Assembly (NCBI GenBank): GCA_029263715.1
Contig: JAJUFP010000001.1
Coordinates: 162,837 to 226,836, forward strand
Direction: 5' to 3'
DNA from: Nitrososphaera sp.
GTDB taxonomy: Archaea; Thermoproteota; Nitrososphaeria; Nitrososphaerales; Nitrososphaeraceae
DNA: 64,000 bases
Under the pieces are notes generated by a model, which made no database searches, was not told where the DNA came from, and saw nothing but the letters and a program-made list of their open reading frames with translations. Made by a program: the position numbers and the translations under genes. The first letter of the stretch is position 1, and each line of letters starts with the position of its first letter. This document shows positions 19,472 through 44,940 of the stretch, piece after piece.

Positions 19472-19752
19472 GCGTGCCAGCTGTAACCCTCCTTCTGTTT
19501 TAGGCGGGATTCCGCTGAGCAGCCAACCTGAGCCGGTGCAGGACCTTTGCGCTCGATTTGGCCTTGCTCCACCCGGGTCGGCAGTTGCATTCCATGGCTA
19601 GGAACCTCAGGCTATGCGCCATCACCGTGTATTCTAGATGGATTTCTTTTCTGTTCCGTTGCCAGCCGTCTCCGGCTAACCATCGCTAGTTCGGGTGCCT
19701 GCAGCGAGGGAGGAGTTTCCTCTCTTCTCGAGTTACCCGCTCACTGGCTCGC
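19472..19752 (-). ncRNA. rnpB: RNase P RNA
   Basis: Minus strand carries GAGGAAACTCC (CR-I) and AAACAGAAGGAGGGTTA (CR-V); 5' gcgagccag pairs with 3' ctggcacgc; followed by a T6 tract. Confidence 0.93.
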
Positions 19753-20345: not shown

Positions 20346-21641
20346 GTGCCGGCAATTTCAAGCCTCAGATTCCCCTTCGATTTGAAGAGGGACCAGCTCG
20401 AAGCAGTGGAAGCATGGATCCAGAACAACTGTCGGGGCTCTGTGATCTTTAGCACCGGCACCGGCAAGACCGAGATCGCGTTTGAATGTGCGCGCAGGGC
20501 TGCGGAACTTTACAAAAAAGACCGGTTTTCAATCCTGTTTCTGGTGCCTCGCATCGTGCTTATCAATCAAAACATTCGCCGGCTTTTGAATTACGGCGTC
20601 GACGCGGCTTCGGTCGGCGCGTACTACGGCGAGCGCAAGGAAATCCGGGAGATAACCATCAGCACATACCAGAGCGTCATCAACAACTTTGATCTTGTGC
20701 GCAGATCCGATATGGTGGTTCTAGACGAAATCCACCTTGCCAGCGAAAGCGCAGTCGAGTACGACAAGATCTTTGATGTAATAGTTGAAGACCCACGCCG
20801 GGCCCTGCTTGGGCTGACTGCCACCATCGATGAAAAAGACCCGCGTTATCGGACCATCATGGTGGTCGTGCCGCCGGTCAAAAAGTACATGATAAAGGAG
20901 GCGGTAAACGACGGACGACTTGCCAAGCCCGTGGTGATAGAGGAAAAGGTTGCGTTCACCGGCGAGGAGCAAAAGATCTACGACGAGACCAGCGCTACAA
21001 TAAAAGAGATCTCTAGAAAACTGCAGGCATACGACCCGCAAAAGATGACAAGGATACTGATGCGGGGCGGGACAAGGGCGTCCATGGCAAAGACCTGGTT
21101 TGCCATGGTCCGCAAACGTAAGGAGGTTCTAAGCTCCAGCCGGCAGAAACTGATCAGAACCCTGGAGCTGGTAAAGAAGCACCCCAAAGAGCGGATAATG
21201 ATCTTTAGCGAGACCGTGGATTCAATACAGCAGCTGCGCGATATGCTTGAAGGCAGCGGGATACCTGCCAGGACCATCCACAATGGGATCAAAAGGCAGG
21301 AAAGAGAAGAGATCCTGCAAAGCTGGGGCCATGACTATTACCCGCTGCTCTCGGTGCATACCCTGGAGATAGGCTACGACGTTCCGCAGGTGGGCATTGC
21401 GATAATCATTGCCAGCACGTCTAACATGAACCAGGTGGCACAGAGAATAGGCAGGGTGGTCAGAAAGGTGGATGGAAAGGAGCATGCCTTAGTGTACGTC
21501 GTCTACGTCAACGATACAAAGGACGACAAGGTCATCAAAACCGTCAGGGCGGCCATAGAAAAAGAAGGCGACGCTGACAAGCTGCCGCGGCAAAAGACAA
21601 GAAGGCCGTCTGCTGGCCAAAAGACCATTACAAAGTACTAG
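20346..21641 (+). CDS. XPB/Rad25-like superfamily II helicase
   Basis: 'STGTGKT', 'LDEIH', 'LGLTAT', 'QRIGRVVR'. Confidence 0.92.
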   Translation: MPAISSLRFPFDLKRDQLEAVEAWIQNNCRGSVIFSTGTGKTEIAFECARRAAELYKKDRFSILFLVPRIVLINQNIRRLLNYGVDAASVGAYYGERKEIREITISTYQSVINNFDLVRRSDMVVLDEIHLASESAVEYDKIFDVIVEDPRRALLGLTATIDEKDPRYRTIMVVVPPVKKYMIKEAVNDGRLAKPVVIEEKVAFTGEEQKIYDETSATIKEISRKLQAYDPQKMTRILMRGGTRASMAKTWFAMVRKRKEVLSSSRQKLIRTLELVKKHPKERIMIFSETVDSIQQLRDMLEGSGIPARTIHNGIKRQEREEILQSWGHDYYPLLSVHTLEIGYDVPQVGIAIIIASTSNMNQVAQRIGRVVRKVDGKEHALVYVVYVNDTKDDKVIKTVRAAIEKEGDADKLPRQKTRRPSAGQKTITKY

Positions 21642-22297
21642 AGACGGGACATTCCCCTTGAAAGCATGCCACCGACGTTCTCCAGGTACGAGTCTATGTC
21701 CATCTCAGCCACCCGGCCAGCATCGGTGTTGATTATGTACACCATATGCAGCCTGGCATTTAGCACATCGTCCTCGGTGACCGGCGGGTTCTTGTAGTAT
21801 CTGTCGCAGAAAAGTTTGACTTCTTTGACGTCTTCTAGGTTCCTGTCGCGGGGCGGCTTTCTGAACAGGCTTGGTATGGGAAGCACGCTTACCGGCGGCG
21901 TGGCCAGAACAAACTGGTTTGCATACTTGCTGTACCTGGATATCTTGCTTGCAATTCTGGCAACATAGTACGACAGCGGGTCCAGCGCGTGTTCCGGCGG
22001 GATAAAGCCGGTTTCTATTTCCACGATGGCCGCGCCGTCGCCCTTGGTTGCGTAGACGTCGCAGACCAGTATGTCTGTCAGCTGTTTTTCTACATCCACC
22101 GTGTAGCCGTATTTGATGAGGTGCTTTGCGCAGACCAGCTCCATGACGGAGTGGTTTATCTTCACCAGATTTCTCTGGTACAGTTCGATGAGCCTGTTCT
22201 TGACAAAATCTAGTCTTTCCACGGTTTCAGGCGGCTCGCCGGCGGACATCTTGTCTGCAAGGTGTGTGACGTCAAGAACAAAACTCTCTATATCCAA
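21638..22297 (-). CDS. Hypothetical protein with PD-(D/E)xK-like motif
   Basis: 'VDVEKQL...VCDVYA....IVEIETG'. Confidence 0.8.
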   Translation of the reverse strand: MDIESFVLDVTHLADKMSAGEPPETVERLDFVKNRLIELYQRNLVKINHSVMELVCAKHLIKYGYTVDVEKQLTDILVCDVYATKGDGAAIVEIETGFIPPEHALDPLSYYVARIASKISRYSKYANQFVLATPPVSVLPIPSLFRKPPRDRNLEDVKEVKLFCDRYYKNPPVTEDDVLNARLHMVYIINTDAGRVAEMDIDSYLENVGGMLSRGMSRL

Positions 22298-22361
22298 TGC
22301 TTCAGTCTTAGTTATTCCCTGAGGCTTTAAAGATTATTCGATGGCTTGCTGAAATTCCATA

Positions 22362-22376
22362 CAGAAAATCTTATAT
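22362..22376 (+). promoter_or_regulatory. BRE + TATA box (cagaaaa-tc-TTATAT) ~25 nt upstream of the structured RNA candidate
   Basis: Purine-rich BRE then TTATAT at 22371-22376. The neighbouring minus-strand gene has its own tttaaa at 22326-22331. Confidence 0.65.
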
Positions 22377-22398
22377 CCTTTCAATACGTATAGAATAT

Positions 22399-22601
22399 GC
22401 CGAGCGGTCCAAGGAGAACCGACTCTGTCAGCAAGTGCAGCGGGTATAGGCTCGCAGCATCCTGATGGAGATGGCCGAAACACAAAACAAGGGCGTCTTG
22501 TGGCGCATTTGTTGCTGTGTTCCGGCAAGGGCAGCAATCGCAGGGTTGCAACGGTGGTAGCCCTGAAGGCGATGTCCTCGAGTCTTCAAGGACCAACTCG
22601 G
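22399..22601 (+). ncRNA. Candidate ~200-nt structured non-coding RNA of unknown class
   Basis: Terminal helices ccgag/ctcgg, ggtcc/ggacc, gactc/gagtc enclose four hairpins; upstream BRE-TATA; pyrimidine tract downstream; no credible ORF. Confidence 0.7.
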
Positions 22602-22605
22602 TTTC

Positions 22606-23115
22606 TCAATCCTTCTTTATGCTGTCCAGTATGGTCTGGACGGCCGTCTTGGCGTCTTTTGCCATCATGATGGGAACGCGGTTTCGCTCATCAAGATACT
22701 TGCCGCCGTACGAGTCGGCAGTCCCTCCGCTTCCGGATATCACGACCAGCGGCTTTTTTATCATGTAGCCCACTGAAAGTTCTATCAATGTTCCAACCCC
22801 TCCACCGATGGCGATTATCCCGTCCGCAGAGGAAGCAACGACAAAGTCACGGGCGAAACCAATGCCGGTGCACACAACGATATCGCAGTACTTGTTGGCG
22901 TATGAAAAGTCATCCTGCGGTATGATGCCAATTGCAGTGCCGCCGGCATCCTTTGCACCCTTGCAGGCGGCTTCCATGACGCCACCCAGCCCGCCGCATA
23001 CCAACGCTGCTCCGGCCTTTGCAATCTCTATGCCTGTAGAGTAGGCAACATCTCTGGCGACATCGGTGCATCTGTCGCCGTTGTAACCTATCACAGCGAT
23101 CTGTATCTTGCGCAC
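22606..23115 (-). CDS. LOG/TIGR00725 family Rossmann-fold protein
   Basis: 'LVCGGLGGVMEAACKGA', 'GGGVGTLIEL', 'SGSGG'. Confidence 0.92.
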   Translation of the reverse strand: MRKIQIAVIGYNGDRCTDVARDVAYSTGIEIAKAGAALVCGGLGGVMEAACKGAKDAGGTAIGIIPQDDFSYANKYCDIVVCTGIGFARDFVVASSADGIIAIGGGVGTLIELSVGYMIKKPLVVISGSGGTADSYGGKYLDERNRVPIMMAKDAKTAVQTILDSIKKD

Positions 23116-23394
23116 AAATCCTGCATCGGCATTCCAGAATTATAGTGTTGTGCAGCAACTTGAAAACCACTTAGCAGGTTTTGGAGGCAAAAATTATGGG
23201 TCAAAAATAGTTGTCATGGAGTTGTACGCGCCTCGGAGGGCTAAACAGTTACTATTATTCTATGTGTAATGTCACTAAATTAAATAATTTGTTAGTTATT
23301 ACTTAGCATTGAATATATCCTATCATAATCGTATAAAGTATGCAATTATAGATTGATAGCGGTTTAATTATATAAGTTTTGTACTATATAACAC

Positions 23395-24777
23395 ATGGGA
23401 ATAACGCGAAAACAATTAGCTGGTTCAAAGTACAGCTTGTTAGCATTCATTATTTCTTTTGGATTCTTGTCCTCTATTTTTATAGTAACTGCAGGTCATG
23501 CGTATGCGGAGGGCGATTCTGACAACACCATAACTCAAAGCGAAATTTGCAAATCTGCCGACAAAAAAATTGATTTGAGTCAGAACCTTTCCGTAACTGT
23601 TCTCACGGACAAGTTCAAGTATTTTATTGATTCGCTCGTTAGCATTAGTGGTGAAGTACGCACTTTATCGCCAGACCCGGTCAAAGTCACAGTGGTTGTT
23701 TGTTTTAGTAAATTCTACAGTAATGAGATGCATGGCATTTACACAATTTCCCAGTTGTTAGAAGATGCTAATGAGATAACCGAATCAAATACAGACACAG
23801 TTCTAACGTCATATCAAAAGAACCCTTCGGATCCCATCTTTGAAACTAATTTTTTCAAGAATTCAATCGCATTCTCGAACATCAATCAGAACAAAGTACG
23901 GACTCTCTCTTATTTAGACAACGGATTGAATGCTAATCGAGCCGGTTCCTATATTGTTGTAGCTTCTGTCACAAGCGGTGACATGACTGAAACCGCCGTA
24001 TCGAACTTTGAAGTTTATGATTATTTTACGCATAAATCTGCATTCTTTTTGTATCTAGGCGCGGGATTCTTTATCTCTCTGATGTTGTTAATTGCTTGGA
24101 GGGCAGACAAAAATCAAAGCTGCATTCATTTGTATAAAAAAGTAGGAAGGCTTATCCTTCTTTCAGGAATAGCCGTCTCCCCGATCTTGAGCCTCCTATT
24201 TAATGACCTAGAGCTCGGATATGGGCCAATAGGTCTAGTTAGAACATACGTTGATACCGATAGTAAAGCCCCTGAGTGGGTTCTAAATATCGGCGGGGAT
24301 TTCGTCGATCAGACTGCTCTTAATGAACTACCCGGAGACGAGACTGCTGGAATTCAAATTCCAGTATACATAGTGGTATTTGGCATTGCGGGTGGCTATC
24401 TGAGGTTCTTGTATGATATTGCCAAGGGGGGATGGGATAAAGCCAAGAATGAAAATAGTGCAACTGAAAACTCACAAAACTCTGCAGCAAAGGAATTCAA
24501 AGAATCCTTGAGCGATGTTGTTTTGTTCTTGCTGGCGCCCCTGCTTGCCATAGCGATATGGTTTATCCTCAATCAAAGCGGCATTGAAGGCGAGAGCGGA
24601 AAATGGACTTTGGCAGCAACTAGTTTTACCATCGGTCTGGTTACCAATGAAGTGATACAGAGGCTCACGGAATTCAGCAGTAGGGTCATCCGGGGAGACA
24701 AAGGTTCAAGTGATGAATCTGCAGCTGCCGAGAAGACAATAGAAAAAGGAGGATCTGCTAATACTGGTGCGACATAA
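23395..24777 (+). CDS. Exported Ig-like domain plus multi-TM membrane protein (AT-rich)
   Basis: Signal-like N-terminus, beta-rich ectodomain, five to six C-terminal TM helices with 'VFGIAGGYLRFLY'. Confidence 0.8.
   Translation: MGITRKQLAGSKYSLLAFIISFGFLSSIFIVTAGHAYAEGDSDNTITQSEICKSADKKIDLSQNLSVTVLTDKFKYFIDSLVSISGEVRTLSPDPVKVTVVVCFSKFYSNEMHGIYTISQLLEDANEITESNTDTVLTSYQKNPSDPIFETNFFKNSIAFSNINQNKVRTLSYLDNGLNANRAGSYIVVASVTSGDMTETAVSNFEVYDYFTHKSAFFLYLGAGFFISLMLLIAWRADKNQSCIHLYKKVGRLILLSGIAVSPILSLLFNDLELGYGPIGLVRTYVDTDSKAPEWVLNIGGDFVDQTALNELPGDETAGIQIPVYIVVFGIAGGYLRFLYDIAKGGWDKAKNENSATENSQNSAAKEFKESLSDVVLFLLAPLLAIAIWFILNQSGIEGESGKWTLAATSFTIGLVTNEVIQRLTEFSSRVIRGDKGSSDESAAAEKTIEKGGSANTGAT

Positions 24778-41720: not shown

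Positions 41721-44940
<3,220 letters not shown>

Follow-up and report, generated by a model that had tools for sequence, protein, structure and literature searches.

Genomic context and predicted fold

The window analysed here, a stretch of 64,000 nucleotides from Nitrososphaera sp. (assembly GCA_029263715.1, contig JAJUFP010000001.1, positions 162,837 to 226,836 of the forward strand), contains at positions 22399-22602 of its plus strand a 204-nt RNA gene, which occupies the gap between two minus-strand genes, one for a 219-aa protein and the other for a SLOG-domain protein (Table 1). As both flanking genes are on the minus strand, a plus-strand transcript would need a promoter of its own, and the B recognition element (BRE) and TATA box which the initial annotation had proposed for this strand include a TTATAT hexamer at the expected place. 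The next gene downstream, at 22606-23115, is encoded on the minus strand, in agreement with the earlier statement that no plus-strand gene follows the RNA.

Folding of the plus strand of region 22395-22612 gave -100.6 kcal/mol, compared with -73.1 +/- 4.1 kcal/mol in dinucleotide shuffles (n=200; z -6.74), none of the 200 shuffles being equally good, whereas the minus strand of the same region reached -80.2 kcal/mol (z -3.5). This asymmetry, and hence the choice of the plus strand, arises because 12 of the 75 pairs in the minimum-energy fold of the window RNA are G-U. All the segments from which the initial annotation had drawn its helices were located at their positions in the sequence (Table 1), and most of the pairings proposed for them, including the 9-bp hairpin, are part of the minimum-energy fold; gactc/gagtc and ttgctg/cagcaa, however, occur neither in that fold nor in the homology model described below, their places in the fold being taken by GGAGA/UCUUC plus CG/CG and by UUUGUU/AACAAG.

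Table 1. Features of the RNA gene and of its two neighbours, in window coordinates
Feature	Position	Strand	Basis or remark
219-aa PD-(D/E)XK-fold protein	21638..22297	-	divergent from RNA; fold prediction
BRE-like purine-rich element AGAAAAT	22363..22369	+	directly 5' of TATA box; sequence
TATA box TTATAT	22371..22376	+	-28 to -23 from RNA 5' end; sequence
P1 5' strand: GCCGAG with 22597-22602, GGUCC with 22590-22594	22399..22410	+	fold; joins 5' and 3' ends
ccgag / ctcgg	22400-04 / 22597-601	+	position verified
ggtcc / ggacc	22406-10 / 22590-94	+	position verified
P2 5' strand: GGAGA with UCUUC 22583-22587, CG with CG 22579-22580	22413..22421	+	fold; corresponds to family P2a/P2b
gactc / gagtc	22421-25 / 22580-84	+	position verified
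P3 22423-31/22462-70 around P4 hairpin 22435-45/22450-60	22423..22470	+	fold
gcggg / ctcgc	22440-44 / 22451-55	+	position verified
P4 signature loop, derived form GGGUAUAGGCUC	22442-22453	+	GG(U)AAAGGC loop as UAUAG variant
Long P5-like hairpin (GCCG/CGGC, AACACA/UGUGUU, AACAAG/UUUGUU, GCGUC/GGCGC)	22474..22526	+	fold
gcgtc / ggcgc	22493-97 / 22502-06	+	position verified
ttgctg / cagcaa	22512-17 / 22532-37	+	position verified
AAGGGCA, remnant of conserved J5/8 joiner AAGGGCAAACC	22527..22533	+	R2 alignment, fold
9-bp hairpin CAGGGUUGC/GUAGCCCUG	22541..22565	+	aligned to P8 by R2; loop lacks both pseudoknot partners
cagggttgc / gtagccctg	22541-49 / 22557-65	+	position verified
AAGGCGAUGUCCUCGAG in place of invariant joiner GAAAGCCACAU (J8/2)	22566..22582	+	alignment
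T-rich tract TTCTCAATCCTTCTTTATGC...	22603..22625	+	antisense overlap with last SLOG codons; sequence
SLOG cluster-4 / TIGR00725 protein	22606..23115	-	tail to tail with RNA; PF18306 5.8e-39, TIGR00725

Homologues and their distribution

A BLASTN search with the window RNA against 40 related genomes gave no match, and relatives surfaced only by synteny with the gene of the 219-aa protein combined with a motif regular expression. With this gene as the anchor, several genomes of the same genus showed short matches about 1.4 kb upstream of the gene, and these proved to be full homologues of the window RNA. They share the closing stem, in which compensatory changes occur, as well as the motif GGCAAGGGCA and a conserved hairpin (GCRRCGGGUAWAGGCUCG), are likewise arranged tail to tail with the SLOG gene, and are preceded by the same promoter as the window RNA, cagaaa(a/g)tcttaaat, the order being cagaaaatcTTAAAT, 23 nt and then the RNA 5' end. 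The comparison of syntenic intervals that had been suggested with the initial annotation did reveal homologues, and pairs covary across the family.

Two covariance models were used, R1 comprising six Nitrososphaera sequences, among them that of the window, and R2 comprising 74 standard members with the window sequence excluded; because their calibration was shortened, the E-values are rough. R1 produced full-length matches, with E-values down to 1e-58, in 65 of 151 Nitrososphaeraceae genomes and 12 of 18 genera, and R2 matched 32 of 301 genomes of the class (13 of 67 genera), reaching families f4, f9 and f10, a single genus (g75) of f13, and f24, which belongs to another order; a locus search added f6 to the families bearing the RNA. 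Synteny and the two models together gave about 130 homologues, extending beyond Nitrososphaeraceae to at least five other Nitrososphaerales families and one family in another order. When R2 was applied to a 401-genome sample of the phylum, three genomes were positive, all of them from the order itself, and none from other classes. The RNA is present in the cultured strains N. viennensis (G208), N. gargensis (G118) and N. evergladensis (G236), which makes the family directly testable. In N. viennensis EN76 the canonical copy is located at about 1,608,929-1,609,161 (plus strand) and a derived one at about 923,703-923,917 (minus strand) of G208, and the copy of N. gargensis at about 1,090,766-1,091,002 (plus strand) of G118.

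Structure and covariation of the standard form

The standard form of the RNA is about 235 nt long and consists of eight nested helices (P1, P2a/b, P3-P6 and P8) and two pseudoknots. The ends of the molecule are brought together in P1, a four-way junction gives rise to the arms P2, P3-P4, P5-P6 and P8, and each strand of the P5/P6 internal loop is paired with the loop of P8, forming the two pseudoknot helices. A naive all-against-all scan for covariation yielded mainly phylogenetic signal, after which helices were put forward manually and tested as a model of 72 pairs which includes the pseudoknots. In the structure-blind MAFFT alignment A4, 87.6% of cells were paired, as opposed to 35-43% when the 3' partners were slid by 1-3 columns, and both sides had changed in 59 of the 72 pairs; the covariation score was 0.431, compared with at most 0.119 for slid and at most 0.249 for shuffled alignments, with 0 of 500 shuffles as high. 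In alignment A6 (88 sequences fitted to R2, with other families included) the paired fraction was 90.4%, against about 38% when slid, and compensatory changes were present in 67 of the 72 pairs.

Individual helices behave similarly in A6. Compensatory changes were found in all 10 pairs of P1, where 94% of cells are paired, and P2a and P2b (helices 2 and 3 of this alignment) are 93-98% paired; P4 has double changes in nine of its 10 pairs, the G-C pair 63/70 being invariant and the pair 64/69 being U-G in 79 of 88 sequences. G-U is the commonest or an intermediate pair at many covarying positions. Pseudoknot 1, in which AUAGGU of the P5/P6 internal loop pairs with ACCUAU of the P8 loop, is not encoded in the covariance model, yet 94% of its cells are paired and all five contiguous pairs covary, with variants such as ACAGGU/ACCUGU, AUGGGU/ACCCGU, GCAGGU/ACCUGC and AAUAGGUU/AACUUAUU. 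Support for pseudoknot 2 (AGUCCAA with UUGGA) is weaker but real, as exemplified by UAAGAA/UUCUUA in locus L139. Outside the helices, little or no variation is seen in the joiners GGGCAAACC and GAAAGCCACAU or in the P4 loop GGUAAAGGC, and this is also true of the unpaired GGGC(A/C)AAC, GAAAGCCACAU and the P4 loop when all families are considered. That these sequences make up a new RNA family is well supported by comparative evidence, given about 130 genes and covariation in 67 of 72 pairs, two pseudoknots included.

Promoter, 3' tail and dispersed copies

The promoter profile of the family was obtained from 85 unique upstream regions and the tail profile from 88 downstream regions. A is the commonest base between -37 and -32 (49-72%) and again between -27 and -25, T is the commonest at the positions separating them (-31 to -28), and a further A/T-rich patch is found at -11 to -8. 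Starts of TATA-like hexamers concentrate at -31 to -28 (64 occurrences in the 85 regions), and 58 of the regions have such a hexamer starting at -36 to -26. The arrangement of BRE, TATA box and proximal element matches that of archaeal promoters, and the promoter and tail profiles are those expected of an archaeal gene. Downstream of the RNA, the first 15 nt are 55% T and a run of at least three T is found in 63 of the 88 tails; the T-rich tract of the window is a probable oligo-T terminator. As in the rest of the family, the window copy has a BRE/TATA element about 25-30 nt upstream, the closing stem P1 and a T-rich tail.

Between 0 and 10 copies occur per genome, usually one in Nitrososphaera, the highest numbers, in other genera, being 10 (G156), 9 (G185) and 7 (G175); copy numbers based on metagenome-assembled genomes are approximate. 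In the R1 survey many copies were located at contig ends, which is expected for a dispersed repeat of about 240 nt in short-read assemblies, and some copies in multi-copy genomes are truncated. What paralogues within a genome have in common is limited to the RNA itself, about 50-100 nt of upstream promoter (of two types) and a T-rich tail of about 15 nt, and no neighbouring open reading frame (ORF) was common to the 18 RNA loci compared, no protein gene travelling with the RNA. In G156 and G185 (loci L098-L116) two classes of promoter can be told apart among the multi-copy RNA genes, each conserved over about 70 nt, '...tttaaacatgatattataaatca...' and '...aaaaaayytaaggcataatcttaaatcyttgaatatac...', a difference which suggests two differently regulated sub-families.

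The element could in principle belong to the minus strand, as the 3' untranslated region (UTR) or terminator of the SLOG mRNA or as the leader of the 219-aa gene, or else be a palindromic DNA repeat of the miniature inverted-repeat transposable element (MITE) type, given its position between two minus-strand genes and its multi-copy occurrence in some genomes, often at contig ends. We nevertheless consider this very improbable. The plus strand folds better by 20 kcal/mol, the 12 G-U pairs would become C-A mismatches on the minus strand, and G-U pairs are frequent at covarying positions throughout the family; the 219-aa gene has a TATA-like element of its own (CTTTAAA at about 22322-22328), the RNA does not adjoin the SLOG gene in other genera, and the unit shared by paralogues has a one-sided promoter and no precise ends, although no search aimed at terminal inverted repeats or target-site duplications was made.

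Relation to known RNA classes

Rfam 15 was searched with gathering thresholds over the whole window, at E<=10 for region 22250-22700 and at E<=5 for seven standard members of the family. Within the window, matches at gathering thresholds were confined to rRNAs, a single tRNA and RNase P RNA, the last of these at 19472-19752 on the minus strand (178 bits), where it had already been annotated. Region 22250-22700 gave no credible match at E<=10 and the seven standard members none at E<=5, so neither has a match to signal recognition particle (SRP) RNA, tRNA, RNase P, C/D, H/ACA, 6S, HEARO or riboswitch models, and the region matches no known family, Archaea_SRP (RF01857) included, in this check, which had been proposed with the initial annotation.

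A strongly diverged SRP RNA, which that annotation had kept as an alternative, would find a loose resemblance to the helix-8 motifs in ccggcaagggcagcaa and nothing further: Archaea_SRP is not matched at E<=10, the genome's bona fide SRP RNA is encoded on another contig (G000:C3:215521-215831, 109 bits, above the cut-off), and the architecture of the family includes no SRP helices. This identity can hardly be entertained any longer. We attach next to no credence either to an intron-rich or atypical tRNA gene, an idea prompted by the seemingly incomplete tRNA set of the genome (32 genes by ARAGORN) and by the 5' end GCCGAGCGGUCCAAGG, which we take to resemble a class II (tRNA-Ser/Leu) D-arm; ARAGORN predicts no tRNA at the locus, Rfam tRNA models do not match it at E<=10, acceptor stem and T-arm are missing, and the covarying family structure is unrelated to a cloverleaf. 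A cis-acting riboswitch had been regarded as unlikely, and the comparison agrees with this, the next gene being convergent in the window as well as in relatives and the neighbours in multi-copy genomes being varied.

Several further identities were rejected. Guide RNAs of transposons (the omega RNA of IscB/TnpB, HEARO, or the bridge RNA of IS110), and mobile-element RNAs more generally, were discounted because there is no common ORF beside the 18 loci, the repeat unit comprises promoter, RNA and tail alone, and HEARO is not matched. A phage RNA was dismissed as no phage or prophage link was found, the sole pattern match on a viral contig proving not to be this RNA. A Y RNA bound by Ro60 was set aside when the TROVE domain (PF05731) proved absent from 25 genomes with or without the RNA, controls being positive. 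Finally, AUGUGGCUUUA in the 16S-23S spacer (window 41774-41784) complements the invariant AAAGCCACAU of the family and is kept at the same spacer position in Nitrososphaera (g1) and g68, but the spacers of g70, g59, g69, g63, g65 and other RNA-bearing genera lack it; with the site conserved in only two genera, pairing of GAAAGCCACAU with the pre-rRNA spacer was rejected as a general mechanism.

To our knowledge, few large structured archaeal non-coding RNAs (ncRNAs) are known beyond rRNA, tRNA, RNase P, SRP and guide RNAs, and searches of the literature returned no published description of the present family. Among its closest counterparts in general character are the orphan bacterial ncRNAs (raiA motif RNA, OLE, ROOL and GOLLD), which are also stand-alone genes of at least 200 nt with many covarying helices, pseudoknots and invariant joiners, lineage-restricted and patchy in occurrence, and placed in gene contexts that do not reveal their function. 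The family differs from them in being archaeal with archaeal promoters, in showing no sequence or model match, and in numbering 0-10 copies that are dispersed and individually promoted, with no phage or prophage link found. Tan1, a 229-nt ncRNA of marine group II Euryarchaeota (PMC5069720), is likewise archaeal, about 230 nt long, complex, lineage-specific and outside Rfam, but is found in another phylum and was discovered through its high expression, whereas the present family is known via comparative genomics only; the two were compared by description.

With archaeal RNase P RNA (RF00373) the family shares paired ends, a multi-helix junction, a long-range pseudoknot and conserved purine-rich joiners, and the function of that RNA as the core of a ribonucleoprotein (RNP) was counted as a likeness as well, whereas a P4-type CR-I/CR-V motif, a model match and universal occurrence are all wanting. 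Archaeal SRP RNA resembles the window RNA in what appears to be independent transcription from its own promoter and in its paired termini, but is a separate gene on contig C3, and the window RNA has no helix 5/6/8 architecture. Y RNAs (Ro60/Rsr) are similar in their terminal stem, U-rich tail, multiple and partly pseudogene-like copies, non-essentiality and patchy spread; the family RNA is twice their size, has pseudoknots, matches no Y_RNA model and is not accompanied by a TROVE gene. No existing RNA class explains the combination of conserved strands, patchiness and variable copy number.

Status of the window copy

The window copy retains the promoter, P1, P2, P3-P4, the basal part of P5, AAGGGCA and a P8-like hairpin. 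The long hairpin following P4 stands in for the standard P5/P6 region, R2 aligning its basal stem alone to P5; there is no P6 region, the loop of the P8-like hairpin (AACGGUG) lacks partners for pseudoknot pairing, and neither pseudoknot of the family is present. R1 gave the window RNA 139.7 bits, a match that holds by construction as the window sequence was one of its six training sequences. A second, canonical copy is found in the same genome (G000:C9:46262-46493, plus strand; R2 63 bits), which keeps GAAAGCCACAU; a TTAAAT box is located upstream of it and its unusual P8 region recurs in G252:C17:1323-1552. With GAAAGCCACAU, P6 and both pseudoknots lost, the window RNA is to be seen as a derived, shortened paralogue rather than as a standard member.

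Other Nitrososphaera species with a second copy have differently reduced RNAs which share the promoter and the UAUAG loop with the window copy, while N. gargensis has a single standard copy, located at the SLOG-adjacent locus. Adjacency to the SLOG gene was checked for some of the reduced copies (L073, L074) and is assumed for the rest from the shared promoter; all derived SLOG-adjacent copies except L074 have UAUAG instead of the standard UAAAG. The fact that loop and promoter are common to species in which the neighbouring 219-aa protein is just 73-83% identical to that of the window points to long retention. The sister copy (L088/L194) is 88% identical to that of the window, only 4 of the 25 differences lying in the 128 paired columns and all four preserving pairing; in the P5-like hairpin ACAC/GUGU has become AUAC/GUAU in L088, a compensatory change. 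From this pattern of substitution the window copy does not look neutral.

Taken together, these observations lead us to lean, with some reserve, towards reading the locus as a genuine ncRNA gene of an uncatalogued Nitrososphaeria family that would provide a trans-acting platform, the window copy being a derived but still-used paralogue. The suggestion of a new, independently transcribed trans-acting RNA, which was the initial annotation's own, is backed at the level of sequence by the approximately 130 homologues with promoter and tail, by covariation and by the lack of an Rfam match. As to how the window copy would still be used, its retained 5' domain and P4 loop would probably serve a sub-functionalised or decoy version of the RNA.

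Several results weigh against this assessment. With R2 the window RNA scores only 25.6 bits (model positions 1-235; E 1.1e-5 for the 64-kb window), which is weak beside the 150-230 bits of standard members, and GAAAGCCACAU, which it has lost, is kept by every other family member in alignment A7, including the C9 copy. The count of 4 in 25 leans towards conservation because the alifold structure was derived from the same two sequences, and one genome scan and two metagenome scans revealed no window-type copies beyond the known sister. At the level of the family, no partner protein, ligand or target was identified, and no match was obtained with lax filters (E<=0.1) in 19 genomes of f13 (Nitrosopumilaceae-type) or in the Nitrososphaeraceae genera g18, g20, g21 and g22; as most Nitrosopumilaceae and four genera of Nitrososphaeraceae do without the RNA, the family is not essential. 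The one transcriptome study of N. viennensis found to mention ncRNAs (PMC13475601) counts only those annotated, SRP and RNase P.

With the most strongly conserved motif of the family missing, a score of 25.6 bits and one known relative, the window copy may instead be a slowly decaying relic, that is, a pseudogene whose function is kept by the C9 copy and whose fold was inherited from a structured ancestor. The losses described above and the difference between 25.6 and 63 bits fit such a history, as do the different ways in which the SLOG-adjacent copies of other Nitrososphaera species have diverged and the truncated copies of multi-copy genomes. Nevertheless, promoter, P1-P4 and a very stable fold (z -6.7) have been retained, differences from the sister copy avoid stems or keep pairing, and the shared UAUAG loop and promoter of derived copies across species imply long retention, on account of which we regard decay as unlikely, though well worth taking seriously.

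Possible mode of action

Absolutely conserved unpaired strands, a patchy spread and 0-10 copies per genome point to a function that is dispensable but strongly selected, and the family is, from its distribution, old within Nitrososphaerales. Our best guess as to its mode of action is that of a trans-acting scaffold, RNP or sensor RNA. An independent unit with a compact pseudoknotted junction and invariant single strands is what might be expected of a pre-formed pocket for a protein, ligand or substrate, and the family RNA would accordingly act in trans, its fold being pre-organised to bind a protein, a small ligand or a further RNA, with the functional pocket formed by the invariant joiners. 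Antisense regulation would not be the favoured mode.

The same architecture, with unpaired joiners absolutely conserved across families and no conserved protein neighbour, might also be that of a ribozyme or an RNA-only assembly in which junction, pseudoknots and joiners form an active site or an oligomerisation interface. As no Rfam ribozyme model is matched and no conserved cleavage-site context was identified, we hold this to be improbable. The family occurs in soil ammonia-oxidising archaea, which carry out much of soil nitrification. It is conceivable, if rather unlikely, that a new catalytic or ligand-sensing machine of these terrestrial archaea is built around the RNA of about 235 nt, whose double-pseudoknotted four-way junction would hold the invariant GGGCAAACC and GAAAGCCACAU as an active or binding site; were this true, the expansion to 10 copies and the derived copies would represent functional diversification. 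Annotation and transcriptome pipelines currently skip the locus, and models R1 and R2 would allow the RNA to be annotated and quantified in existing data.

Neighbouring genes and additional observations

The 219-aa protein has no sequence match in Pfam, NCBIfam or the PDB; its AlphaFold2 model has a predicted local distance difference test (pLDDT) score of 91.8, and Foldseek matches it to proteins with the restriction-endonuclease fold. The RNA is found within about 1 kb of a homologue of this gene in families f4, f6, f9 and f10. A functional link between the two was rejected, since some genomes that lack the RNA (e.g., G036, G035 and G038) have the gene as well, and the neighbourhood is therefore best read as conserved synteny. 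In relatives (L004-L024) a 3-hydroxyacyl-CoA dehydrogenase gene is located between the 219-aa gene and the RNA or SLOG gene, and is absent from the corresponding position in the window (22298-22398), where a local deletion or rearrangement would have brought the RNA promoter to about 75 nt from the divergent 219-aa gene. On its other side, within 20346-22297, the 219-aa gene (minus strand) converges with that of an XPB-like superfamily 2 (SF2) helicase (431 aa, plus strand) with a 4-nt overlap. The protein is conserved across Nitrososphaerales and shows a weak fold resemblance to the Bax1 nuclease domain; it may be a minimal XPB-partner nuclease.

With regard to tRNA genes, ARAGORN found only 32 in the genome (G000), several of them with long introns, and many isoacceptors went undetected; as expected with intron-rich thaumarchaeal tRNAs, unannotated tRNA genes thus remain to be found. 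Downstream of the RNA locus, positions 23100-24400 form a low-GC island (30-40% versus about 50%) which may have been acquired or be hypervariable, and which includes a gene for a predicted membrane protein of 460 aa with no Pfam match (23395-24777, plus strand). Lastly, a segment of 36 nt immediately 3' of the 23S gene (44905-44940, minus strand; G000:C1:207741-207776) is 92% complementary to positions 41721-41756 of the spacer and probably constitutes the 23S processing stem.

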